Source: Candidatus Micrarchaeota archaeon (GTDB taxonomy: Archaea; Micrarchaeota; Micrarchaeia; Anstonellales; Bilamarchaeaceae). Taken from it: a stretch of 64,000 nucleotides of DNA. A program made the position numbers and the translations under genes. The stretch lies in NCBI GenBank assembly GCA_038046765.1, contig JBBSVN010000004.1, forward strand, positions 32,001 to 96,000, written 5' to 3'. Shown here piece after piece: positions 19,841 through 55,619 of the stretch. How positions within the stretch are numbered: the stretch's first letter is position 1; each line of letters begins with the position of its first letter. Below the pieces are notes generated by a model. It had not been told where the DNA came from, made no database searches, and saw nothing but the letters and a program-made list of their open reading frames with translations.

Positions 19841-20626
19841 TTAAATTATATTTTTCACAAACCCTTTGACATCACTTAATGCTTTTTCTTCTTCATTTAA
19901 TTTTCCGTTTTTATCAATGTATTTTGTGTAAATATTAATTATTTTACTTCCAACAATTACGCCATCTGCACCGGCTCGAATAAATTCCAGTGATTGCTCT
20001 TTATTTGAAATACCAAAACCAACAAAAAGATTATTTTTTCTGTTATTTATTTTGGCCAAATTTTGTGCAAATTCTTTTACTGATTTGACAAATTTTAAAC
20101 TTTCAATACTCGTACTAGTTCTTGCTCCTGTAGTTCCGGCAACTGAAACCAAGTATGTAAACAGCTTTTCTTTTTGAAGAATTTTTCTAGAGCGATCTAT
20201 TTGGGTGTTAGAAGAAATCAAATTAACTATCGAAATATTGTATTTTTCCGTCAGATTTTCAAATGTTTTATCTTCTTCAAACGGCAGATCTGGAATAATA
20301 ATTCCTTGAACTCCTACTTTGGCCATCCTCTGCAAGAAATTTTCCCTTCCATACGCATAAACAATGTTATAATAAGTCATGAAAACAAATGGAGTTTTGA
20401 TGTGTTCTTTCCTTAGAGTTTCTACCATCGAAAAGATTTTATCTGTGTTTGCTCCGCTTTTAAGAGCACGTTCGCTTGCTCCTTGAATCGTTTTTCCATC
20501 TGCAATCGGATCTGAAAAAGGAATCCCTAATTCTATTAAATAAGAATAAGGCGCGAGAGTTTTAACTAACTTGTAAGTAAAATCCAAATTCGGATCGCCA
20601 CAACAAACATAAGGAATAAATTTCAT
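19841..20626 (-). CDS. trpA: tryptophan synthase alpha chain
   Basis: [35 protein letters not shown]. Confidence 0.95.
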
Positions 20627-21819
20627 AGATTTTCAGCCTCGTTTTGCTCTAACTTTGAAATTCGATCAACATCCTTGTCTCCTCTTCCGGAAAGGTTGAC
20701 AATAACTACAGAATCCTTCTGTGCAATCTTTGCAAGTTTTGGTAAGTATGCAATTGCATGAGCACTTTCAAGAGCAGGAATAATTCCCTCATCTTTAGAT
20801 AGAGAATAGAATGCGGCAAGTGCTTCGTTATCATCTATCGAAACATACTTAGCACGTTTACTATCGTGCAAATTTGCATGTTCTGGCCCAATAGCAGGAT
20901 AATCTAAACCAGCCGATATAGAATGTGTTTCTCTTACTTGCCCAAAATTATCTTGTAGTAAATAAGTAAGCGTCCCATGCAGTACTCCTTTCTTACCATC
21001 ACCGCTTATTCTTGCTGCATGTTTTTTAGTACTAAGACCTAACCCTCCAGCTTCAACTCCGATCATTTTAACATTTTTATGTTTTAAAAAAGCGGAAAAT
21101 AATCCTATTGCATTGCTTCCCCCACCAACGCAAGCAAGTAGATAATCGGGTAGCTTCCCTTCTTTTTCAAGAATTTGTTTTTCTGCCTCAACTCCAATAA
21201 CTGATTGGAAATGTTTTACTATACTAGGATACGGGTATGGACCAAGCGCCGAACCTAAAATGTAATGCGTATCTTTGAAATTTGTCGCATAATCCCGAAG
21301 CGCTTCATTTACGGCATCTTTTAATGTTTGTGAGCCAGATTCGACAATCTTAACCTCTGATCCAAGCAATTTCATCCTATAAACATTAAGCGCTTGACGC
21401 TCGGCATCTACTTTGCCCATGTAAACAACGCATTCTAAACCAAATAACGCTGCTGCAGTTGCGCTAGCTACACCATGTTGACCAGCTCCAGTTTCTGCGA
21501 TGATTCTTTTTTTATTCATGTATTTTGCTAAAAGTGCTTGACCAATTGTATTATTTATTTTATGAGCACCAGTATGTAGAAGGTCTTCTCGTTTAAGGTA
21601 AATTCTAAGACCAAATCTTTTACTTAGGTTTTCTGCAAAATAAAGCGGAGTAGGCCGCCCCGCATAATCTTTTAAGTAGTCCTCAAGTTTTTTATTAAAT
21701 TCTTTATCTGCAATTGCTCTTGCAAAACTTTCTTCAAGCTCTTGTAGTACCGGAACTAGTAATTCTGAAACGTATTGTCCGCCAAATTCTCCGAAGTTTT
21801 TTTGCATTTTACAGAACAC
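20623..21819 (-). CDS. trpB: tryptophan synthase beta chain
   Basis: [43 protein letters not shown]. Confidence 0.97.
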
Positions 21820-22585
21820 CTTTTAATTCGCGTATCTTTGCTTCTTGATTATCAGCTTTCCAAAGCGCAGATCCAACAAGTATCCCATTTGCTCCTGCAA
21901 CCTTGACAAACTTTGCATCCGCATAAGATTTGATTCCGCTTTCGCTTATAACAGGTTTATTTATCGTTCCACTAGCAGCAAGTATATCTTTAGTTCGATT
22001 CAGGTCAACTTTTAATGTTTGTAAATCTCGATTATTTATCCCTAGAACATCTGCCTTTGTTTTAGCTGCTCTTTTCATTTCATTTGCATTATAACACTCG
22101 AGCAAAACATCAAGACCGTTCTCATGAGCTAAATCTATAAAACTGTTAACATCCAGATTTAATCTGTCCATAACTTTCATTATTAAAAGAATACAATCTG
22201 CCCCATAATGTTTTGCAGCTTTAATCTGGACTGGGTCAATTACAAAATCCTTAAATAAAACCGGGAGTCCCGTTTCTTTAGCAATAGCTAAATTGTTCAA
22301 ATTTCCCTTGAATATTTTTGGTTCAACCACAACTGAAATCGCATCTGATCCACATTCCTTAAACCGCTTTGCTGTTTTTTCCACATCGATATTTTCAAAG
22401 GAGTATTCCCCAGCCGGTGAAGCATGTTTTATTTCAGAAATTAATATGAAACCACAATCACGTATTTTCTTTAGTAAGCTAACATGTTCAAAACTATTTT
22501 TAGTAATTTTTGCATCGTTTATATCGTAATAACCCGTCCGTACACTTTCTTTTGCGCATTCGATAAATTTATCTAGTATATCCAT
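21809..22585 (-). CDS. trpC: indole-3-glycerol phosphate synthase
   Basis: EIKHASP, KDFVID, GINNRDL, ISESGI; no C-terminal TrpF domain. Confidence 0.93.
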
Positions 22586-23562
22586 TAGTATCGCCTCAAC
22601 ATTTCTAATTTTTCAAGTGATTTGCCTGAATCAATTGATTTTTCTGCAAGAGTTACCCCATATCTTATACTACCTGCGATTCCACTAACGTAAATTGCAG
22701 CACCTGCATTAAGAAGAACGATTTCACGAGCTGGTCCTTCTTTGCAATTTAACACTTCTAGAATTATGTTTGCACTTTCTTTTCGATCATTTGCACATAT
22801 TTTATCTAAACTTGAACGCTTAAACCCAAAATCTTCTGGCGAAATGGAATATAAATTAATTTTATAATTAGAGATTTCGCTTATGTTCGTATCCGCACTT
22901 ATACTGATTTCGTCAGTATCACTAGAAACAATCAAGGTTTTTTCTGTACCAATTTCACGAACGGATTTTGATAATTTCTCCAGAAGCGAAGCATCGTAAA
23001 CTCCAATGACCTGTCTTTTAGCATTTGCTGGGTTAGTTAATGGGCCAAGGACATTGAAAATAGTCTTAAAACCAAGCTCGCGTCTAGCTTCTGCAACGTT
23101 TTTCATTGCAGGATGATAAATGCGTGCAAAAAGGAACCCGATTCCGATCTCTTCGATTTGTTTTTCTACAGCTTTAGGTTCCAAATCAATCTTTACTCCA
23201 AGAGCTTCTAAGACATCAGAACTTCCGCATTTACTAGAAGCGGATCTATTACCATGTTTTGCAATGTTTACCCCTGCTCCTGCTGCAACAATTGCACTAG
23301 CTGTTGAAATGTTGAATGTATGATTGCCATCGCCTCCAGTTCCAGCAGTATCAACTAAATTTTTAACTTTTGAAGAAATCTTAACCATTTTTTCTTTCAT
23401 TAAATTTGCAAATGCAGCAATTTCTTCGCAAGTAACATTTTCGATTTTTAATTCTGTAAGAAAGGTTGCAATCTGAGAAGGATTATATCGATTTTCAAGA
23501 ATTTCTCTGAAGATTCTTATTTCTTCTTGTAATTGCAACTTGTCAACCATCTTTAGCACCAT
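22585..23562 (-). CDS. trpD: anthranilate phosphoribosyltransferase
   Basis: DTAGTGGDG, FNIST, KHGNRSASSKCGSSD, GPLTNP. Confidence 0.95.
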   Translation of the reverse strand: MVLKMVDKLQLQEEIRIFREILENRYNPSQIATFLTELKIENVTCEEIAAFANLMKEKMVKISSKVKNLVDTAGTGGDGNHTFNISTASAIVAAGAGVNIAKHGNRSASSKCGSSDVLEALGVKIDLEPKAVEKQIEEIGIGFLFARIYHPAMKNVAEARRELGFKTIFNVLGPLTNPANAKRQVIGVYDASLLEKLSKSVREIGTEKTLIVSSDTDEISISADTNISEISNYKINLYSISPEDFGFKRSSLDKICANDRKESANIILEVLNCKEGPAREIVLLNAGAAIYVSGIAGSIRYGVTLAEKSIDSGKSLEKLEMLRRY

Positions 23563-24145
23563 CTAAAAAGTTCTTAAGTATTTGTTTTCCTTCTTCGCTC
23601 ATTATAGATTCTGGATGAAATTGAATTCCAAATATTGGAAATTGTTTATGTCTTAGTGCCATTATTACATTGTCATCTGTACTTCTTGCAATAATTTCTA
23701 AACAACTAGGTAATGAAAATTCATCAGCAATTAATGAGTGATAGCGCATAATACTTAGAGGATTTTTTATATTCTTGAAAAGCCCATTTCCATTGTGGTT
23801 TATCTGACTAGTCTTTCCGTGCATTGGTTTTTGTGCTTTTATTACCCTGCCACCAAATGCGTTAGCTATGCCCTGATGCCCTAAACAAATACCTAAAACG
23901 GGAATAGACTTTCCAAGTTCTAGAATAACTTCCTTGCATTTACCAAAATCACGTTCATTTTCAGGATTGCCTGGCCCTGGTGAAATGACAATTTTAGAAT
24001 AATTCTTTTTCTTGATTTCTTCCAAATTAATTTGATTATTTCTGATTATATCTACCTTGCAACCTAATTCTCCTAGGTATTGATATAGGTTATATACGAA
24101 TGAATCAAAATTATCAATTAACAGAACGTTCATATTTTTCTTCAC
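23543..24145 (-). CDS. trpG: anthranilate synthase component II (glutamine amidotransferase)
   Basis: IDNFDSFVYNL, SPGPG, GICLGHQ, RYHSL, QFHPES. Confidence 0.95.
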   Translation of the reverse strand: MKKNMNVLLIDNFDSFVYNLYQYLGELGCKVDIIRNNQINLEEIKKKNYSKIVISPGPGNPENERDFGKCKEVILELGKSIPVLGICLGHQGIANAFGGRVIKAQKPMHGKTSQINHNGNGLFKNIKNPLSIMRYHSLIADEFSLPSCLEIIARSTDDNVIMALRHKQFPIFGIQFHPESIMSEEGKQILKNFLDGAKDG

Positions 24146-25463
24146 CTATGGCTAAGAGTAATGGTTTTGCTTTTTGCTCGGTTTCTTCATACTCTTTTTG
24201 AGGAACGCTATCATAAACTATTCCCGCTCCCGATTGTATATATGCTTTATTTTTGTTTGAAAATAAAGTACGAATTCCTATTGCAAAATCCGCATTGTCA
24301 TTTGAAGAGAAGTACCCAACTGCCCCGGAGTATGGGCCGCGATTAGTTTTTTCTAATTCTTTTATAATTTCAATTGCACGTATTTTTGGAGCACCGGAAA
24401 CAGTTCCAGCAGGAAATATCGCTTCAAAAACATCTCCAGAATTTTTTCCTTCTTTTAGTTTGCCTTTTACAATTGAAGAGATGTGCTGGACATGCGAATA
24501 CTTACTAACTTTCATAAATTCTGGAACCGATACCGAACCGATTGCTGCGACTTTGCCAATGTCATTTCTTGTTAAATCAACAAGCATAAGATGTTCTGCT
24601 CTTTCTTTTGGATCATTAAGAAGTTCTGTTTCAAGTCGTTTATCTTCTTCAACAGTTTCCCCCCGTTTTCTTGTTCCAGCTAAAGTAGCATAGCTCGTAA
24701 TTTCTTGCCCTTCTAATCGAACTAGGTTTTCAGGACTAGAGCCAATAATTTGCCTCTCATCAAATTTCAGATAAAACATGTAGGGTGAGGGATTTATTGC
24801 CCTTAATTTTTTATAAAAAGAAATTAAGTTCCCAGAGTATTTTACTTCATATCGCTTTGAGAGTACAGATTGGAAAATGTCTCCGTTTCTTATGTGATCT
24901 TGTGCAATTTCTACATTTTCACAAAATTGTTCTTTAGTCAAATTACATTTTTTATTATACATTTCTAAAGGAGATGTGGAAAAAGAAGAATCTTTAACAG
25001 AATTTAGAATTTCATTTACTCGGTTTTCTTTTTGATAGACATATCTTAGAGTATTATTTAGATGATCGTAGATAATTACATCTTCATATATTCCGAATTC
25101 AAAATCAGGAAACCTCAGATCATTTTGAGTTTGTGCAGTAAACTTTTCTATATAATTTACATATTCAAAAGAGAAATAACCTACTGCTCCTCCAAAAAAT
25201 CCCTTTTCTTCTAGAGATGTTCTTGGAATGCATGATTTTAGGTCTTTTATCGGACTAATTGTATCTAGTTCTTGCCCATCGACCGTGATTACTCCACGAT
25301 TTAACTTTACTGTTTTTGTTGGAGAAAATCCTAAGAATGAGAATCTTGCCCTTTTTTGGTCTCCTTCGCTACTTTCAAGTAAGAAAGATGCACAAAAATG
25401 TTCATTTAGTATTGAGTATAAATCAGTTGGACTAACGTGCAAATCTAGATCTACTTTATGCAA
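24114..25463 (-). CDS. trpE: anthranilate synthase component I; true start possibly TTG 25497 via +1 frameshift
   Basis: FLLES, NPSPYM, GSSPE, AEHLMLVDL, PAGTVSGAPK, GAGIV. Confidence 0.93.
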   Translation of the reverse strand: MHKVDLDLHVSPTDLYSILNEHFCASFLLESSEGDQKRARFSFLGFSPTKTVKLNRGVITVDGQELDTISPIKDLKSCIPRTSLEEKGFFGGAVGYFSFEYVNYIEKFTAQTQNDLRFPDFEFGIYEDVIIYDHLNNTLRYVYQKENRVNEILNSVKDSSFSTSPLEMYNKKCNLTKEQFCENVEIAQDHIRNGDIFQSVLSKRYEVKYSGNLISFYKKLRAINPSPYMFYLKFDERQIIGSSPENLVRLEGQEITSYATLAGTRKRGETVEEDKRLETELLNDPKERAEHLMLVDLTRNDIGKVAAIGSVSVPEFMKVSKYSHVQHISSIVKGKLKEGKNSGDVFEAIFPAGTVSGAPKIRAIEIIKELEKTNRGPYSGAVGYFSSNDNADFAIGIRTLFSNKNKAYIQSGAGIVYDSVPQKEYEETEQKAKPLLLAIGEEKYERSVN

Positions 25464-25497
25464 GCCAAAGTAAATCCCTTTTTCCTGTATTCTGCAA
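25456..25497 (-). promoter_or_regulatory. trpE leader ORF MQNTGKGDLLWLA* containing a candidate Trp-sensing +1 frameshift site
   Basis: GAGGTG-N6-TTG CAG AAT ACA GGA AAA GGG GAT TTA CTT TGG CTT GCA TAA; +1 frame TTT GGC TTG CAT is the trpE frame. Confidence 0.6.
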
Positions 25498-25565
25498 ATC
25501 TAGCACCTCAATAAAATTATTTTGATTAATAATCGAATTGCTGTCTAGCATATATTTAAACATTT

Positions 25566-26084
25566 GTGTACAAAAATATACATATGCTCGATATTCTTGA
25601 AAAATTCTTTGAAAATGCACGAGGAAGGAAACTTGTTGCTATTGAATTTTTACGTTTAGGATTAAAGGTAGATGGAACAGGTAAGATATATGTTGGTGAA
25701 ATAGAAATAGCTCCCACTAAGATTGGTAGAGCACTTGGAGTTGACCGGAGAGTAGTAATAGAAACAGCAAAAGAAATAGCGAATGATGAGAAACTACTAC
25801 AAATATTTTACAAACTTGAATCAAGGTCATTTATTGCGAATGCAGCAAAAGAATTTGGTTTTGATGTGGTTGAACTTAGAGCTAATCCAAAAGCAAAAGG
25901 AATTGTAGCAGAAGTTACTAAGATTTTAGCTGATTGCGGAATTGTTATTCGTCAAATTATAACTGATGATCCAGAATTATTTCCTGATCCTGTTTTGACA
26001 ATCATAATTAATGGAAAACTTAATGCAAAAGTAGTAAAAAAACTGAAGGAATTAAGTTTTATGGAGTCATTGAAGATCAGATAA
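25566..26084 (+). CDS. archaeal amino-acid metabolism regulator with ACT domain (COG2150-like)
   Basis: IGRALGVDRRVV HTH-like segment; GIVAEVT...IRQIITDDPEL; divergent from trpE. Confidence 0.8.
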   Translation: MYKNIHMLDILEKFFENARGRKLVAIEFLRLGLKVDGTGKIYVGEIEIAPTKIGRALGVDRRVVIETAKEIANDEKLLQIFYKLESRSFIANAAKEFGFDVVELRANPKAKGIVAEVTKILADCGIVIRQIITDDPELFPDPVLTIIINGKLNAKVVKKLKELSFMESLKIR

Positions 26085-39856: not shown

Positions 39857-39947
39857 GTCATTTCGTAACCGTTGTCGTGCCTTCTGTTGGCATTGACATT
39901 CTGCCTGTTGATGTCGTTCCTGTTGAAGTTACGGATCAAAGGGCGCA
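39857..39947 (-). repeat. DGR template repeat (TR)
   Basis: 91 nt, AAC-rich; 17 mismatches to 40416-40506, all at TR adenines on the minus strand. Confidence 0.95.
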
Positions 39948-40204
39948 GAGGTAACCCATCCACTCTAGCAAGCTGCAATTAGATTGCAGATTGCAACGGT
40001 GCCTAGCACCAACACCACAGTTTCACGTTTTCATCAAGCTAGACTACTTGGTGTCACTGTTGAATTTCATTGAGAAATATTTAGATTTCAAAATAGTGAA
40101 AATTTCTAAAGATTTTCATTCATGTCTAACTACCAAAAGGTAGCTAGCACTGTGGATGAGTGTGTGGCCCTAAGCTTACAACCTAGGGAAAAAGATAAAG
40201 AAGG

Positions 40205-48881: not shown

Positions 48882-50336
48882 ATGCAAATTAACATAAAAA
48901 AAATAGAACCAGCAGATGTTAAAAGCGAAATACTTGCGATTGCATTGTATCAGGACGAAAGTTTACCATTTGCAGAAATTACTAAAGGAATAAGAAAAGA
49001 AGAATTTACTGGAAAATCTGGACAAGTATCTATAATAGACAGCCAGGGAAAAACTAATTTTAGAAAAGTACTACTTTATGGACTAGGAGAAAGTAAAGAA
49101 TTTAACCTGGATTTATTAAGAAGATTTGGAGGAACTGCGCTTAGATATGCTGCGGGAATTAAAACAACGAGCTTGTCAATTAGTGCGAATATTGTGGAGG
49201 TTAATTCAAGCGATGCAGTACAAGCGATATGCGAGGGAGCGATTTTAGCAAATTACAAACCAATCCAGTTTAAGAGTAAGCAAGATGATTACTTCGAATT
49301 AAAAGAATTTGATGTGATTTCTAAAGAGAACATTGCTGAATATGTAAATCGCGCATCGATACTAGCTAATTCTCAAAATTATGTTCGGGAAATTAACGAA
49401 AATCCAGCGAATATTGCAACACCGCAAAAACTAGCTGAACATGCAAAGAATTTAGCCAAACAAAATAAGCTTGACATTACAATTCTAGAGAAAAAAGATA
49501 TGGAAAAACTTAAGATGAATGCAATACTCGGAGTAAATCAGGGAAGTCCATTACCTCCTGTTATGGCAATTTTAGAGTATAATAAAGGTAAAATGAACTT
49601 GCCACTTTATGCAGTAATCGGGAAAGGAATTACATTTGATAGTGGCGGTATTTCGATTAAGCCAGCTAAAGGAATGCAGGAAATGAAGTATGATAAAACT
49701 GGTGCAGTCACAACATTAGGAATTGCAAAGGCAGTAAGCGAGCTTAAATTACCGATTCGATTAGTTGCAGTATTTACTGCTACTGAGAATATGCCATCAG
49801 GCAGTGCGCAAAAACCAGGCGACATCGTAACAGCATATAATGGAAAAACTATTGAAGTACTAAATACAGATGCAGAGGGGAGATTAATTTTATCAGATAC
49901 ACTCTCGTACATTGCTAAAGAGAAAAAACCAGAAGTTATGATCGACCTTGCAACTTTAACTGGTGCAATGATAGTAGCGCTTGGAAAATATAGAATCGGA
50001 TTATTTAGTAACGATGATACCGTTTCAAATGCATTATACGGCGCTGGAGAAAAAACTTTTGAACGAGTTTGGAGAATGCCAATGGATAAAGAGTACAGTG
50101 AGATGATTAAAGCTGATTTTGCGGATATTAAAAATATCGGAAGCGAAGGCGGAGAAGCGGGTTCGATTACTGCAGCTTGTTTTCTAAAGGAATTTATCGG
50201 GGAAACTAAATGGGCTCACTTAGATATTGCAGGAGTTGATAACATTGCGGAACGACATGCTTATTTAGATAAAGGAGCGAGTGGGATTGGTGTTAGATTA
50301 GTTTGTGAAGCGCTAGAGAAGATGGCGAAGAAATAA
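48882..50336 (+). CDS. pepA: leucyl aminopeptidase (M17)
   Basis: GKGITFDSGG, MKYD, ENMPSG, NTDAEGRL, ATLTGA, WAHLDIAG. Confidence 0.96.
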   Translation: MQINIKKIEPADVKSEILAIALYQDESLPFAEITKGIRKEEFTGKSGQVSIIDSQGKTNFRKVLLYGLGESKEFNLDLLRRFGGTALRYAAGIKTTSLSISANIVEVNSSDAVQAICEGAILANYKPIQFKSKQDDYFELKEFDVISKENIAEYVNRASILANSQNYVREINENPANIATPQKLAEHAKNLAKQNKLDITILEKKDMEKLKMNAILGVNQGSPLPPVMAILEYNKGKMNLPLYAVIGKGITFDSGGISIKPAKGMQEMKYDKTGAVTTLGIAKAVSELKLPIRLVAVFTATENMPSGSAQKPGDIVTAYNGKTIEVLNTDAEGRLILSDTLSYIAKEKKPEVMIDLATLTGAMIVALGKYRIGLFSNDDTVSNALYGAGEKTFERVWRMPMDKEYSEMIKADFADIKNIGSEGGEAGSITAACFLKEFIGETKWAHLDIAGVDNIAERHAYLDKGASGIGVRLVCEALEKMAKK

Positions 50337-50340
50337 CTAA

Positions 50341-50613
50341 TTGCCAATATTTAAATATTTTGCCATTTATAAGATAGATATGGCAAACGAGAGTATTACA
50401 TTAATTGATCAATACGGAAGGTTAGTTGTACCAAAATCAATAAGAGACAAATTCGAAACTAAGCAAGTTGTTTTGATTTATGATGAAAAAAATAAAGATG
50501 CACATATCATCCCAGTAAAGAATATATCCGAATGGAAAGGAAAATTTAAAGGAATACTAAAAAATTATATGAAAGAACACGAGGAAGACCAGAATGATAC
50601 TCATCGTAGATAG
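50341..50613 (+). CDS. AbrB/MazE-type antitoxin (likely start 50380)
   Basis: IDQYGRLVVPKSIR; overlaps the downstream PIN gene. Confidence 0.8.
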   Translation: MPIFKYFAIYKIDMANESITLIDQYGRLVVPKSIRDKFETKQVVLIYDEKNKDAHIIPVKNISEWKGKFKGILKNYMKEHEEDQNDTHRR

Positions 50614-50971
50614 TTGGGCTTGGCTAGCAACTGGTGAAGAGGGAAGACACGCAGATGAATCAATAGAACTAATAAGCAACAAGAAAAATGAAATTTTAAC
50701 AACAATGCTCAATATATACGAAGTATACTATAGGGTTACGCAAGCGTATGGAGAAGAAAAGGCAAGAAAATTCATAGAATCGATAAAACAAAGAGCCAGA
50801 ATTGTCGAAGTGGATGAGGAGCTAACATTTCTTGCAGCAAATTTGCATTTAAAAGAAAAACTTTCAGTAATAGATGCATTTGTTTATGCTACCGCACTAA
50901 AGGAAAACGGACAAGTTCTTACAGGAGACCCTCATTTTAAAGGAAAGGAAATGGTAATTTTTATTGAATAA
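50594..50971 (+). CDS. vapC: VapC PIN-domain toxin
   Basis: IVDSWAW, NIYEV, LSVIDA, LTGDPHF. Confidence 0.9.
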   Translation: MILIVDSWAWLATGEEGRHADESIELISNKKNEILTTMLNIYEVYYRVTQAYGEEKARKFIESIKQRARIVEVDEELTFLAANLHLKEKLSVIDAFVYATALKENGQVLTGDPHFKGKEMVIFIE

Positions 50972-51414: not shown

Positions 51415-51692
51415 ATGGTTAAAAGGGATGTTCTTCACGAGGGATTTTCTTCATTGTGCTCGATTCAAAGGCACGCCTAGTTTTACCATTAGAAATTCGT
51501 GACACCCTTAATGTAAAAAAGAACGAGAAAATTCTAATTAGCGTTAGCGATGCTAAGGAAGACAAAATCACTATAGAAATTTCTAAGCCTAGCATAAGCG
51601 ATGAAACGGATTCAATCTCATACTCCAGGAATGGAAAATATGTGAATCGGAGAAATACAGAAACTAAAGACAAACAGAATGAGGTGGATTAA
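51415..51692 (+). CDS. AbrB/MraZ-like DNA-binding protein; SD-led start at 51415 needs two +1 shifts (ORF track start 51456)
   Basis: IVLDSKARLVLPLEIR motif; tandem sites AGGGATGTTCTTCAC (51424) and AGGGATTTTCTTCAT (51440). Confidence 0.7.
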
Positions 51693-51744
51693 ATGAACAA
51701 AACAAAAAAAGGTGAAAAAGGAAAAGAGGTAAAAAGGGATTTAC
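51681..51744 (+). repeat. 64-bp leader cassette, copy A
   Basis: 58/64 identical to 52477-52540, last 36 nt identical. Confidence 0.9.
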
Positions 51745-52488
51745 TTCATCAAAAAAGATAGACAACTGAAGGAAAGAACTCGGAGAGTTTTTCGTTCGTT
51801 ATACAAGCAAGACATAATCTCTGAAGAAGAAATTGATAAAATCGAGATTCAGGAATGCGGGGAAAAATTAGTTCGTATTGAAGACCCAAAGATTATAATA
51901 GAAAAATCCGTAAAAAGACAGAAATTTGATGGAGAGGGTATTCTTTATGCTCGCCAAACCGTTGCAAAAATGCTGTATCAAGCTGCGGATACTTTGCCTT
52001 TAGGTTTTAAACTAAAATTTTTTGATGCATACAGACCATTAGAATTCCAACGAATGTTATTTGAAGAGGAATATCAAAGAACTAAAAAAGCAAATCCTGG
52101 TTTAGATGAGAGCGAAATCAGAAAGATTGTTTTTGTTTCAGTTTACCCTCCTAGCTATGATTTACAGAAACCCCCTCCGCACAGTACAGGTGGTGCGATT
52201 GATCTAACGATTTTAGATCAAAGTGAAAAGGAATTGGATATGGGTTCTAGATATTGTGAATTTGGAGAGAGCATGCACACAAATTACCCGAACTTGACTA
52301 GTTCTCAAGCCAAAAATCGATTGATACTATTAAATACGATGCTCAATGCAGGTTTTGCTAACTTTCCAGGTGAATGGTGGCACTACATGTATGGCGAAAG
52401 AGAGTATGTTGCGTATACATCAAAAATAATAGGAAAGGCAATGACTGCGATATATGCAGGTACAAAAACAAAACAAGAGGTGGAGTAA
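51693..52488 (+). CDS. VanX-like D-Ala-D-Ala dipeptidase (M15); SD-led ATG 51693 is out of frame, +1 shift proposed near 51746
   Basis: IQECGEKLV, FDAYRP, PPHSTGGAIDLT, DMG, EWWHY; frame open from 51733 with no ATG/GTG/TTG until 51970. Confidence 0.85.
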
Positions 52489-52540
52489 ATGAATAGAATG
52501 AAACAAGGTGAAAAAGGAAAAGAGGTAAAAAGGGATTTAC
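52477..52540 (+). repeat. 64-bp leader cassette, copy B
   Basis: Direct repeat of 51681-51744. Confidence 0.9.
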
Positions 52541-53677
52541 GGCACAGATACTAAGAAAGTATTTGTTTCGAGAAGTACTTGCGAAATTGAAACAATACGC
52601 AAACCATATTATGGAATAAATGTATCCCAAGGTGAAGAACCAATAGATCAACTAGATTTTCTTTTCTTTGTAAAGCGATTAGGGATTCCAATAACTGTTT
52701 TTATAGCAGGGCAATATGGAGTATTAAACGACAAAAACGGATCTGAATTAGCTAGAAAAGAGATGATAAAGGAAAATCTTTTTAGAAAATTATTTGAAAT
52801 TTTTAAAGTAAATGGACAAACTCTCGTAACCCGTCAATTATGGAGCGGTTCACCTTACTGGCAATGTGTTCTGGATTTAATAGATAATAAAGAAATGCCT
52901 TACAAAGCTAAACAGAATAATGAAAGATTTCAAAGAATAAAAACAGCATTACAAACTGATATTAAAGGATCTGCAAGACAATTATCAGAAAAAGTATTTG
53001 ATAGATTAGCTGATTTTGAGCCATCTTCATTTTATACTTTGTTTGAAGTAGCAGAAGCAAAATATTTTAGAGAAATATCGAAATATGATTCTAAAATAGG
53101 TCCGGAAAGCGAAGAACCTTATGATAGGTTCATTCGGGAATTTATGCCAACAATCCAGTTATACCAACCAATATACTTGGATTCAACATTAGAAAAAACA
53201 AGCAGAGCAATTCCGTATATGACTGGCAAATGGGGCGGAGAAAGAGTTTACTTAACTGACTCAAAAGAGGATTTATTGACAAAAGTTTACAAAGCATCCC
53301 AAAGAACTGATAGAACTCCGGTTTTTTGGAAGATAAATGGTTATTCTGCAGAGGAAACACTAACTATAAATCCATTTGCAAGATTAACTATTTTTGCACT
53401 TGAATCAGCAAGAATAGTTGATTGTTTACCCTTAAGGTTGGGCAATAGAAGCATCTATTCTTCAGAAGAAGCTCTAGAGTTCTTAGATAAATCAGGTTCC
53501 CGAGATTTACCTAAAATGGCTGGCGTTGTGGGAGAAGCGATTTGGAATTACATCCTAAGGCCAGTTCAACAACCCCTTATAAAAAAATACTTCGAAATTT
53601 CGCGCAGTTATAATGACTTTGGTGAAGAATATTTTCGTAAAGAAATAGCGCACATGAGGAGGGATGATCTACTATGA
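52489..53677 (+). CDS. hypothetical protein, possibly class I aaRS-like fold; SD-led ATG 52489 is out of frame, +1 shift proposed near 52542
   Basis: Frame of ORF 52763 is open from 52529 (KGIYGTDTKK...PYYGINVSQG...) with no ATG/GTG/TTG before 52763. Confidence 0.65.
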
Positions 53678-54387
53678 AAAAAATTGGGATTTTAGGGGGG
53701 ATGGGACCAGAAAGTACGGCCCATACATACATGAAAATGATTGAATATTGTCAGAAAGAGTATGGGGCAAAACAAGATGCTGATTTCCCCCCAATTGTCA
53801 TTTATAGTTGCCCTATTCCGGACGTAGTAAACATAAATAATAAAGAAGTCGAGCTACTGGAAAACTTAGAAAGTGGAATAGATTTGCTAAAGAACGCAGG
53901 TTGTAAATTTGCAATAATTCCTTGCAATTCAGTACAGAGTTTTTTACCTGTACTTAGCAAAAAACTTCCGATAATTTCAATAGTCGAAGAAACTATCGAA
54001 GAACTAACGAAATTAGGAATAAAGAAAGTCGGACTCCTAGCTACGCAAACAACGCTTTCTAAAAGAATTTATCAACAGGCTTTGGAAAAACAAGGAATCG
54101 AAATGATTCTGCCAGAAAACCAAAAAGAAGTAACAGAGGTAATTAGGAAAATCCTTGAGGGTAAGAAAGAAGAAACCAAAGAAAAATTATACAACATAAT
54201 AAATAATCTGAAACGCAAAGGTGCAGGTGCAGTAATATTAGCGTGTACAGATTTACCATTAATAGTTGACAAAAAAGATTTTGATATCGCAATATTAGAC
54301 ACTGTAGAAATTCTCGCAAAAGCCGCAGTTAAAAAATATTACCAGTTAATTGATTATAGGTTAAAAAGTTCGAGGTCAAATAAATGA
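53674..54387 (+). CDS. aspartate/glutamate racemase family protein
   Basis: IGILGGMGPEST, IPCNS, GLLAT, ILACTDLP. Confidence 0.92.
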   Translation: MKKIGILGGMGPESTAHTYMKMIEYCQKEYGAKQDADFPPIVIYSCPIPDVVNINNKEVELLENLESGIDLLKNAGCKFAIIPCNSVQSFLPVLSKKLPIISIVEETIEELTKLGIKKVGLLATQTTLSKRIYQQALEKQGIEMILPENQKEVTEVIRKILEGKKEETKEKLYNIINNLKRKGAGAVILACTDLPLIVDKKDFDIAILDTVEILAKAAVKKYYQLIDYRLKSSRSNK

Positions 54388-55619
54388 AAGGAACACCAAA
54401 AGGAATGCGGGATATACTCCCTGAAGACGCAATGCTGCGAAGGCAAGTGCTAGAACTGGTTGAAAAAGTTTATCGAAGTTACGGTTATGTTCCAATTGAA
54501 ACTCCTGCAATTGAATATTTATCAACACTTAAAGCAAAAGGCGGAGAAGAAATTAACAAACAAATATTTATTTTCAAAGATGAAGAAGTTGGATTACGCT
54601 TTGATTTAACCGTCCCTCTTGCTCGAGTAGCAGCTACAAATGTATTTACTAAGCCATTCAAACGATACGCATTTGCACCAGTCTGGAGATATGAAGAACC
54701 TCAAAAAGGAAGGTTTCGGGAATTTTGGCAGGCAGATATTGATATTATTGGAACTAAAGGTATGCGGGCTGAAGCTGAATTATTGACAGCAGCTAGAAAC
54801 GCACTAGTTGCACTTGGATTTAAGGAACTAAGAATTTTACTAAATAACCGAAAAATACTTGATGCATTAGCTAAGAAACTAGAAATAGAAGACAAAAAAG
54901 AATCAGTATTCAGATTACTAGATAAGATAGACAAAGTTGGAAAAGAAAAAGTTGAAGAAGAATTAAATGAAGTAATTGGAAGCGAAAAAACTAAGGAACT
55001 ACTCTCAATTCTAACTGTTTCGGGCGATAACAAAAAGAAACTTGAAATAATTAAATCAATAAGCGAAGACGGCGCAAAAGAACTGGAGGACATTTTAGCA
55101 CTAACTAACTTTGAAATCGAAATAGATTTGCTACTTGTTCGTGGTTTAGGATACTATACTGGACCAATATTTGAAATAAAAGGTAGCGAGAATATAGGTT
55201 CAATAGCAGGTGGCGGAAGGTATGATAATCTTCTAGCGGTTTATGGAAAGGAAGACGCTGCAGTTGGAATTAGTTTAGGAATTGAGCGAATAATTACACT
55301 TTTAAAAGAAAAACAAATTCAACTAAAGCGAACTTATAGTAGCGTACTAGTTGCAAATGTAAAACCAGAGTTCTATTCTTATGCAGCACAAATAGCGGGA
55401 AAACTACGAGAAAATGGAATAAATGTAGAGACAGATTTAAACGAACGAAACTTAAGAAAACAATTTGATTATGCAAATTCTTTAGGGATAAGTTATGTAA
55501 TAATTGTCGGGGAAAAGGAAATTAAAGAAAACAAGGTAACGCTAAGGAATATGAATTTAGGGGATGAAAAATTCCTAGACTTAGGGGCAACAGTTAGCCT
55601 TTTAAAAGCTTCTGTGTAA
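54384..55619 (+). CDS. hisS: histidyl-tRNA synthetase
   Basis: PKGMRD, LRFDLTVPLAR, QKGRFREFWQ, LVRGLGYYTG, GGGRYD, GIER. Confidence 0.97.
   Translation: MKGTPKGMRDILPEDAMLRRQVLELVEKVYRSYGYVPIETPAIEYLSTLKAKGGEEINKQIFIFKDEEVGLRFDLTVPLARVAATNVFTKPFKRYAFAPVWRYEEPQKGRFREFWQADIDIIGTKGMRAEAELLTAARNALVALGFKELRILLNNRKILDALAKKLEIEDKKESVFRLLDKIDKVGKEKVEEELNEVIGSEKTKELLSILTVSGDNKKKLEIIKSISEDGAKELEDILALTNFEIEIDLLLVRGLGYYTGPIFEIKGSENIGSIAGGGRYDNLLAVYGKEDAAVGISLGIERIITLLKEKQIQLKRTYSSVLVANVKPEFYSYAAQIAGKLRENGINVETDLNERNLRKQFDYANSLGISYVIIVGEKEIKENKVTLRNMNLGDEKFLDLGATVSLLKASV

Follow-up and report, generated by a model that had tools for sequence, protein, structure and literature searches.

The stretch of Candidatus Micrarchaeota DNA analysed here (contig JBBSVN010000004.1, positions 32,001 to 96,000; called the window below, 64,000 nucleotides (nt) long and numbered from its first letter) carries a tryptophan operon whose trpE gene lies one base out of frame behind a short leader with a single Trp codon. 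The two frames meet in a cassette, A(A/G)G GAT NTN CTT TGG, which we are practically certain is real and conserved, and which recurs in related genomes before other genes with another codon in place of TGG. Its best reading is, with high confidence, a programmed +1 ribosomal frameshift site, and control by the supply of the cognate aminoacyl-tRNA is likely. The full statement, that a programmed +1 frameshift triggered by a hungry cognate codon gates trpE and other pathway genes, is probable on the comparisons presented below. The sequencing runs carrying this DNA are groundwater metagenomes, and a search for runs turned up no RNA run with it.

The elements of the leader and the genes behind it are as follows.

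25504 to 25509, minus strand: Shine-Dalgarno (SD) sequence GAGGTG, read from sequence, 6 nt 5' of the leader start, with a predicted duplex of -10.7 kcal/mol with the 16S tail.
25456 to 25497, minus strand: leader open reading frame (ORF) in the 0 frame, with TTG start, 13 codons and TAA stop; peptide MQNTGKRDLLWLA.
25474 to 25479, minus strand: AGG GAT, which forms the 5' half of the cassette and is conserved; a possible SD-like or nascent-peptide stimulator.
25464 to 25473, minus strand: putative shift site TTA CTT TGG C, with TTA in the E site, CTT (25470-25468) in the P site and TGG (25467-25465) in the A site.
25461 to 25463, minus strand: TTG, before which the trpE frame has no canonical start. 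It lies two codons past the Trp codon and could serve this genome as a start without a frameshift.
24114 to 25469, minus strand: trpE frame (+1 to the leader frame), taken from the predicted slipped codon through the stop.
19841 to 24145, minus strand: trpG, trpD, trpC, trpB and trpA (Pfam GATase, Glycos_transf_3, IGPS, PALP and Trp_syntA).

On the minus strand the leader reads TTG CAG AAT ACA GGA AAA AGG GAT TTA CTT TGG CTT GCA TAA, with one Trp codon among its 13. A first-pass annotation of this DNA, made from the letters alone, had described such a leader, and its SD, spacing, codon count and lone Trp codon all stand. The seventh codon, by contrast, is AGG and not GGG, so the N-terminus does not run ...GKGDLL... 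as given there. The 3' end of the genome's own 16S rRNA is ...GATCACCTCA, and GAGGTG is complementary to it, which makes GAGGTG a true SD for the leader.

The trpE frame is the +1 frame of this leader, in agreement with the same annotation. A TAG at 25502-25500 closes it on the 5' side, and between this stop and TTG 25463 there is no ATG, GTG or TTG in frame. The identity of the gene is clear from Pfam, with Chorismate_bind at an E-value of 4e-96 and Anth_synt_I_N over residues 10-139 of the TTG-start form. The trans-frame protein is predicted to begin MQNTGKRDLLGLHK... Downstream, each start in trpGDCBA overlaps the end of the preceding gene by 1-32 nt (ORF coordinates). A tRNA-Leu(GAG) gene is present in the genome. 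We also observed an 11-nt direct repeat, CTAGATTTGCA, at 25493-25503 (the leader start) and at 25436-25446 (early trpE), both on the minus strand.

TrpE is present in 31 of the 99 genomes of the family, and the 5' ends of 30 loci were inspected. The first-pass annotation had proposed this comparison, and the motif is indeed kept in relatives: seven of the 30 loci, from six genera, carry the cassette, with TrpE proteins 54-66% identical to the one studied here. All seven share one layout, consisting of an SD, a start codon, 2 to 8 variable codons and A(A/G)G GAT NTN CTT TGG, with trpE always one base out of frame. The leader starts with ATG in the six relatives and with TTG here. Most of the invariant columns fall in the core block, the sequence on either side of it can hardly be aligned, and an identical 16-mer is common to the trpE cassettes of three genera. 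The A-site codon is TGG in all seven and the P-site codon CTT in six; the seventh cassette, in genome G009, reads CAT TGG.

The codon aligned to TTG 25463 is TTG in two of these loci and TTA, CTG, CCG, CCG and ATA in the rest. It is not a start codon in five of the seven, so TTG 25463 is not a conserved start, and initiation there independently of the leader, raised at the outset as the competing possibility, is not borne out as a conserved arrangement. Twenty-one of the 30 loci, in other genera, have a plain SD and ATG at the equivalent distance from a TATA-like box, with proteins starting MIYKKL...; two of the 30 were not assessable. In view of these plain starts, the cassette seems to have been inserted after the trpE start codon, ahead of the body of the gene, in a single clade.

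Chance, assembly error or decaying pseudogenes could in principle produce an out-of-frame leader of this kind. These are metagenome-assembled genomes, and the trpE of G009, with its deviant cassette, also has an internal TGA. The same layout, however, is found in independently assembled genomes of six genera, and the ORFs that the cassettes gate are intact and give strong domain matches. Furthermore, contigs of an independent second study are identical over the cassette, with no gap (runs X4, 25212-25538, and X5, 25384-25581), so an assembly indel, such as the one-base deletion that had been flagged for checking, is not the explanation. We consider this whole class of explanation extremely unlikely.

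The cassette is not limited to trpE. The 12-mer AGGGATNTNCTT gave 41 matches in 5 relatives, against 12 for a reversed-pattern control, and AGGGATKTACTT gave 60 matches in the 99 family genomes, against 26 for the control. Frames and protein families were analysed at all 41 loci of the AGGGATNTNCTT search and at 43 more from the AGGGATKTACTT search. The exact 12-mer occurs in 39 of the 98 other family genomes, compared with 4 of 77 genomes from other families of the order (about the control level), and is almost confined to the family; other lineages may have motifs of their own.

The codon that follows AGGGATKTACTT is CAY in 24 matches, CCA in 7, TGC in 5, TTC in 5 and TGG in 4, that is His, Pro, Cys, Phe or Trp in 45 of the 60. 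Forty-four cassettes passed a filter for an SD plus a start codon, and six A-site codons (CAT, CAC, TGG, CCA, TGC and TTC) account for 41 of them. Since U or C is the first base of all six, a slip would leave UUU or UUC in the P site, and tRNA-Leu(GAG) can re-pair with either.

Where the gated gene belongs to a known pathway, its A-site codon and identity are as follows (G, C and L numbers denote our genomes, contigs and loci).

CCA: proB-like amino-acid kinase in G001, G004 and G099; best NCBIfam match TIGR01027 at about 110 bits, below the 186-bit cut-off.
CCA: proC in G114 and G001; TIGR00112 at 183 bits in G114 (cut-off 196.75), while the G001 ORF ends at 35 residues and is named by its GAGNMG motif only.
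CAY: hisD, histidinol dehydrogenase, in G010, G041 and G097; Pfam Histidinol_dh, E-values 1e-114 to 1e-129.
TGC: cysteine synthase in G020; cysKM at 361 bits, above the cut-off.
TGG: trpE in all seven cassette-bearing genomes.

The A-site codon is thus cognate in every gated gene of known pathway, and we saw no cassette that contradicts the rule. Five codon-pathway matches out of five have p ~6e-5 if drawn from the cassettes' own codon mix, and against genome-wide codon usage the value would be far smaller. The first-pass annotation had argued from the Trp and His sites of this one genome that the sensor codon matches the pathway; that argument is considerably strengthened by the Pro, His and Cys genes of the relatives. 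Furthermore, CAT and CAC alternate at His sites, a change that is silent in the leader frame and turns Ile or Met into Thr in the +1 frame. Selection is therefore on the codon as read in the leader frame.

His cassettes also stand before genes outside the recognised pathway. They gate two families of unknown proteins, one of 358-467 residues and one of 355 residues (L068, L075 and L030 in G053, G075 and G013; L071 and L076 in G070 and G078), and a radical SAM/SPASM protein (L100 in G006). These proteins may have unrecognised histidine-related functions. As a separate observation, one motif match, at 8239-8269 of contig C7 in G085 (L081), reads CTT TGA A, with a stop in the A-site position like that of prfB; it has no leader start nearby and is probably due to chance.

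In the genome of the window, a motif scan with frame filters found five sites at four loci, and relaxed motifs found no further cassettes in it. One more, a variant with CGG in place of CTT at 52531, came to light outside the motif scans. Besides the trpE site, the window holds, 26 kb away, AGG GAT GTT CTT CAC at 51424, AGG GAT TTT CTT CAT at 51440 and AGG GAT TTA CTT CAT at 51735, all in the operon of hisS. These three CTT sites and the CGG variant bear out the claim that the Trp codon sits exactly where His codons sit in that operon, whose parts are the following.

51416 to 51481, plus strand: leader with two tandem cassettes, at 51424 (CAC at 51436) and 51440 (CAT at 51452), the second in the +1 frame of the first.
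51450 to 51692, plus strand: ORF for a small AbrB/MazE-like regulator, with a weak MazE_antitoxin match, that would be reached after two +1 shifts.
51694 to 51761, plus strand: leader with cassette AGG GAT TTA CTT CAT at 51735-51749 (CAT at 51747).
51745 to 52488, plus strand: open +1 frame encoding a Peptidase_M15 protein (D-Ala-D-Ala dipeptidase-like), with no canonical start before 51970.
52489 to 52554, plus strand: fourth His leader, with CGG for CTT (AGG GAT TTA CGG CAC); cassette at 52531-52545.
52541 to 53677, plus strand: unknown protein in the +1 frame of the fourth His leader; the annotatable ORF is 52763 to 53677.
53674 to 55619, plus strand: Asp/Glu racemase and histidyl-tRNA synthetase genes, each start overlapping the preceding stop by 4 nt.

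The tandem His layout before the AbrB-like gene was seen in all 10 loci examined. The gap between the first His codon and the second motif is 1 or 4 nt, as two +1 shifts in succession would require. Orthologues of the AbrB/MazE-like ORF keep LDxKARLVLPLEIR, in the next +1 frame after the second motif. The open frame of the M15 gene has 251 residues, and the domain match runs from residue 61 to residue 225 (profile positions 29-189), whereas the first ATG is codon 80, which is 75 codons past the shift site. The annotatable ORF at 52763 to 53677 lacks about 75-90 N-terminal residues: residues 93-350 of its 355-residue orthologues align to its residues 3-274. The orthologues of this last protein carry CTT CAT cassettes. 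Just 5' of the His-gated operon (48882-50971, plus strand) lie an M17 leucyl aminopeptidase gene, a 90-residue ORF and a PIN-domain gene, a possible toxin-antitoxin pair.

A change of frame seems to be needed for many of the gated genes. After the SD-plus-start filter, 26 cassettes have a +1 ORF of at least 55 codons, and 14 of these gated ORFs have no canonical start in the +1 frame 5' of the shift site. In nine of the 14 start-less ORFs the first start comes at least 10 codons past the shift site. The proB-like proteins are a clear case, with the AA_kinase domain from residue 5-10 and the first ATG, GTG or TTG at codon 43, 49 or 28. The hisD gene of G097 has its first start 114 codons past the shift site and its domain from residue 45.

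Several steps of the mechanism that we propose, namely the slip, its dependence on aminoacyl-tRNA, the role of AGGGAT and the coupling, we infer from this arrangement. Ribosomes would load at the leader, which has the only good ribosome-binding site of the trp mRNA, start at TTG 25497 and read MQNTGKRDL-L, leaving peptidyl-tRNA-Leu on CUU in the P site while the single UGG awaits decoding. With ample Trp-tRNA, UGG would be read, the ribosome would stop at TAA two codons on and no TrpE would come from it. With scarce Trp-tRNA the A site would stay empty, tRNA-Leu(GAG) would re-pair from CUU to UUU, GGC would be read and the trpE frame would be entered. The shifted product, MQNTGKRDLL-GLHKVDL..., would be TrpE with an 11-residue N-terminal extension, and trpGDCBA would follow by translational coupling, as the gene overlaps suggest. 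The A(A/G)G GAT NTN element would stimulate the slip, either through weak 16S pairing at a prfB-like spacing or through the nascent peptide. The cassette would be modular: with its A-site codon changed to one for Pro, His or Cys, it would gate proB and proC, hisD and the hisS operon, and cysK in related genomes. The hisS operon would work likewise, which would give histidyl-tRNA synthetase an autoregulatory loop.

A number of observations weigh against this mechanism, or leave room for others. The first concern the starts. An in-frame start lies inside the leader in 12 of the 26 gated ORFs (in five it is an ATG formed by the motif GAT-G, and in two a GTG within the SD). In this genome TTG 25463 lies only two codons past the shift site, with AGGGAT 10 nt before it, and some TrpE could start there without a slip. 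One may therefore propose that there is no frameshift at all: TrpE would be made from its own TTG 25463 (in relatives from ATG, GTG or the near-cognate ATT), and the leader would be an overlapping regulatory upstream ORF that, through its translation or a stall at UGG, affects how TrpE is initiated or reinitiated, or how stable the mRNA is. TTG 25463 is overlapped by the leader stop (TAA 25458-25456), an arrangement suited to termination-reinitiation, and the +1 reading of the motif always holds ATT, ATG or ATC. Against this proposal stand the five trpE cassettes without the TTG and the leader stops, which range from 2 to 27 codons past the shift site. So do the 14 ORFs without an upstream in-frame start, among which the proB-like, M15 dipeptidase and G097 hisD genes have their first starts inside a conserved domain. 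Moreover, a ribosome held up at the sensor codon would hide the start close by and lower the enzyme in starvation, which is the wrong sign, and the mod-3 spacing of the tandem cassettes would be meaningless without frame changes. We judge the proposal unlikely.

The second group of observations concerns the sensing. In a family of small HTH proteins, three genomes have TGC in the cassette, three have TTC and a seventh has a TTG/TTC tandem, and among the neighbours (unknown proteins, PP2C-like, ferredoxin, HAD hydrolase, AbiEii-like) no link to an amino-acid pathway was found. One such TGC cassette precedes a 69-residue HTH_7 protein without a start of its own, the first canonical start being codon 56 (8570-8807 of contig C6, another contig of G000, the genome of the window; L018). 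The HTH family would suit a constitutive +1 site that sets a fixed low expression, its A-site codon being merely slow or that of a rare amino acid, and the A-site codons are indeed mostly those of the rarest amino acids (Trp, His, Cys). A fixed attenuator, however, needs no codon that tracks the pathway. The codon is nevertheless cognate in five of five enzymes of known pathway, and it is constant per orthologous group at genus-level divergence, as seen with TGG at trpE and with CCA in all five proB-like and proC cassettes. A constitutive site is, in our estimate, quite improbable, and sensing by a frameshift remains the preferred reading.

The third group concerns the slip itself and the census. 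Some cassettes have a P-site codon other than CTT: second tandem sites show GTT (4) or CTC (1), the site at 52540 has CGG, and the trpE of G009 has CAT. These re-pair poorly, so simple slippage is not the whole mechanism. Out-of-frame A-site binding has been proposed for some yeast frameshift sites, and it may contribute. The search patterns fixed CTT, and the family-wide scan also needed a non-G letter 18 nt downstream, so the census is incomplete. Finally, the AGGGAT-16S duplex has a predicted energy of -7.5 kcal/mol and needs a bulge, where the background has a mean of -3.2 and a 5th percentile of -7.0, and true SDs reach -10 to -11.

All seven trpE cassettes carry AGGGAT or its variant AAGGAT, as do those before other genes. 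AGGGAT lies exactly 3 nt 5' of CTT, the position that the SD-like element has in prfB. An SD-like role for it is weakly supported by the duplex model, and the nascent peptide K/R-D-(L/V/F)-L is an equally possible stimulator. Such conservation at the nucleotide level across unrelated genes may also be that of a protein or RNA binding site (an operator, or a TRAP-like or T-box-like element), with the frames incidental; a specifier codon matching the pathway likewise marks T-box leaders. For a binding site, however, it is hard to see why a start with an SD always lies 5-17 codons 5' of the codon and in its frame, and why the gated ORF is always in the +1 frame. The leaders are also only ~20-60 nt long, and no conserved fold was found in six relatives. 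An Rfam scan of the whole window at gathering thresholds gave no match to a T-box, a structured leader of ~200 nt. Its sole match is an unrelated RT-16 RNA (39946-40188, minus strand, 59.8 bits, above the gathering score). We hold a binding site to be highly improbable.

Other sources of the slip were tried and set aside. In this genome a stem is predicted between the SD/start region and the region past the shift site (z -2.7), and in G013 and G114 the SD/start pairs with a stretch ~70 nt downstream. No shared or significant fold was found in six relatives (z +0.9 to -1.6), and a conserved RNA structure was dropped as a general stimulator. Missing m1G37 on tRNA-Leu was dropped as a source of slipperiness, a Trm5/TYW2-family gene being present. 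Transcriptional slippage on the A-run before AGGGAT was also rejected, the run being A5 here and only A2-A3 in relatives. An ARAGORN census returned only 8-12 tRNA genes, too incomplete for tRNA gene dosage.

The trp operon also appears to be under transcriptional control. Upstream of the leader we found the following elements.

25553 to 25560, minus strand: TATA-like box TTTAAATA of the inferred trp promoter, ~45 nt before GAGGTG.
25567 to 25582, minus strand: two boxes, TGTATA (25582-25577) and TGTACA (25572-25567), directly 5' of the TATA-like box; from their sequence, a likely TrpY operator.
25566 to 26084, plus strand: divergent gene for a putative regulator of the tryptophan-responsive TrpY family, adjoining trpE, with probable start ATG 25584.

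Most trpE loci of the family have TTTAAATA or a close variant ~55 nt 5' of their first start codon, and TGTACA-like boxes surround the TATA-like box also in relatives, with or without a cassette. TGTACA is the TRP-box consensus, which the two boxes upstream of trpE match or resemble. The regulator covers 159 of 163 profile positions of NCBIfam TrpY_fam (E-value 7e-44, 149.7 bits, short of the 180-bit cut-off) and has a weak ACT-domain match. TrpY-type repression at the TGTACA-like boxes would add transcriptional control by free tryptophan on top of the frameshift.

In terms of known systems, the closest in mechanism is bacterial prfB, an autoregulatory +1 frameshift at CUU UGA C, which an SD-like element precedes by 3 nt. 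In both, the P site holds CUU and a slow codon beginning with U follows it; both have a purine-rich, G-containing hexamer exactly 3 nt before CUU and lie early in the message, and in both the product of the shifted frame would relieve the shortage causing the shift. In prfB, however, the awaited codon is UGA, read by release factor 2 (RF2), whereas here sense codons (TGG, CAY, CCA, TGC, TTC) stand before genes that do not encode a release factor. The present cassette is also modular, on at least eight gene families, sits in an archaeal host and has weak 16S pairing. To our knowledge archaea lack prfB (RF2), and the likeness to the prfB site, pointed out in the earlier annotation, holds for the mechanism only.

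The yeast +1 sites of Ty1, ABP140 and EST3 also have CUU followed by the codon of a scarce tRNA. As in these CUU sites and in laboratory hungry-codon shifting (PMC5009743 and PMC8211752), peptidyl-tRNA-Leu would slip on CUU in dependence on tRNA supply, but those cases are not wired to the biosynthesis of the awaited amino acid. A 2016 recoding review treats hungry-codon shifting as an error process of unclear natural use (PMC5009743).

The trpL, hisL and pheL attenuators resemble the system proposed here in their short leader with cognate codons, in the speed of the ribosome reporting charged tRNA, and in the two tiers formed with a repressor (here the putative TrpY). They differ in that attenuators use terminator/antiterminator folds and runs of codons, whereas here a change of frame would follow from a single sensor codon or from two cassettes. 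Terminator/antiterminator hairpins with a U run were not found at the trpE leader, which overlaps trpE directly, and the six relatives have no fold in common. Antizyme (OAZ) is likewise a +1 frameshift that is both sensor and effector of a metabolic feedback, but it is eukaryotic, senses polyamines, acts at a stop codon and shuts synthesis down, where the present cassette would switch it on. In mycobacteria, cysteine-responsive short ORFs, which share the same features as the leader-peptide attenuators, are described in one report (10.1101/834739).

As for archaea, the -1 frameshift of Saccharolobus solfataricus fucA1 is the only cellular case reported, and +1 shifting is given only for a haloarchaeal virus, according to a 2021 review of archaeal recoding (PMC8211752). 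Like the genes described here, fucA1 is a cellular archaeal gene needing programmed frameshifting, but it shifts by -1 on an A-rich heptamer, in a single gene and with no known sensing role. Our literature search, with most subscription journals outside its reach, found no description of such amino-acid control. We know of no leader-peptide attenuation or T-box control in archaea.

If the frameshift reading is true, archaea would monitor tRNA charging on the ribosome, with a change of reading frame as the output. Beside attenuators and T-boxes there would then be a third general way of sensing amino acids on the mRNA, and archaeal cellular genes would have their first regulatory +1 frameshift. 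It would give a dedicated natural role to hungry-codon frameshifting, so far a laboratory error phenomenon, and at trpE it would amount to the two-tier logic of bacteria reached by other means. A compact, codon-programmable sensor of this kind would also be of use in synthetic biology.

Annotation would be affected as well. Many genes of DPANN archaea at present seem to lack a start, to be cut short or to be damaged. In these genomes proB, hisD, the M15 dipeptidase and the small regulators would be called wrongly by gene finders, and metabolic reconstructions may undercount gated genes. Finally, for the family as a whole, the comparisons incline us towards the following picture, somewhat more tentatively than for the frameshift itself. 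This family of DPANN archaea would possess a portable frameshift attenuator of ~16 nt, placed after the start codon, in which one exchangeable codon sets the aminoacyl-tRNA that is monitored. It would switch on Trp, Pro, His and Cys biosynthesis, a tRNA synthetase operon and small transcription factors, with two in series giving a steeper response.

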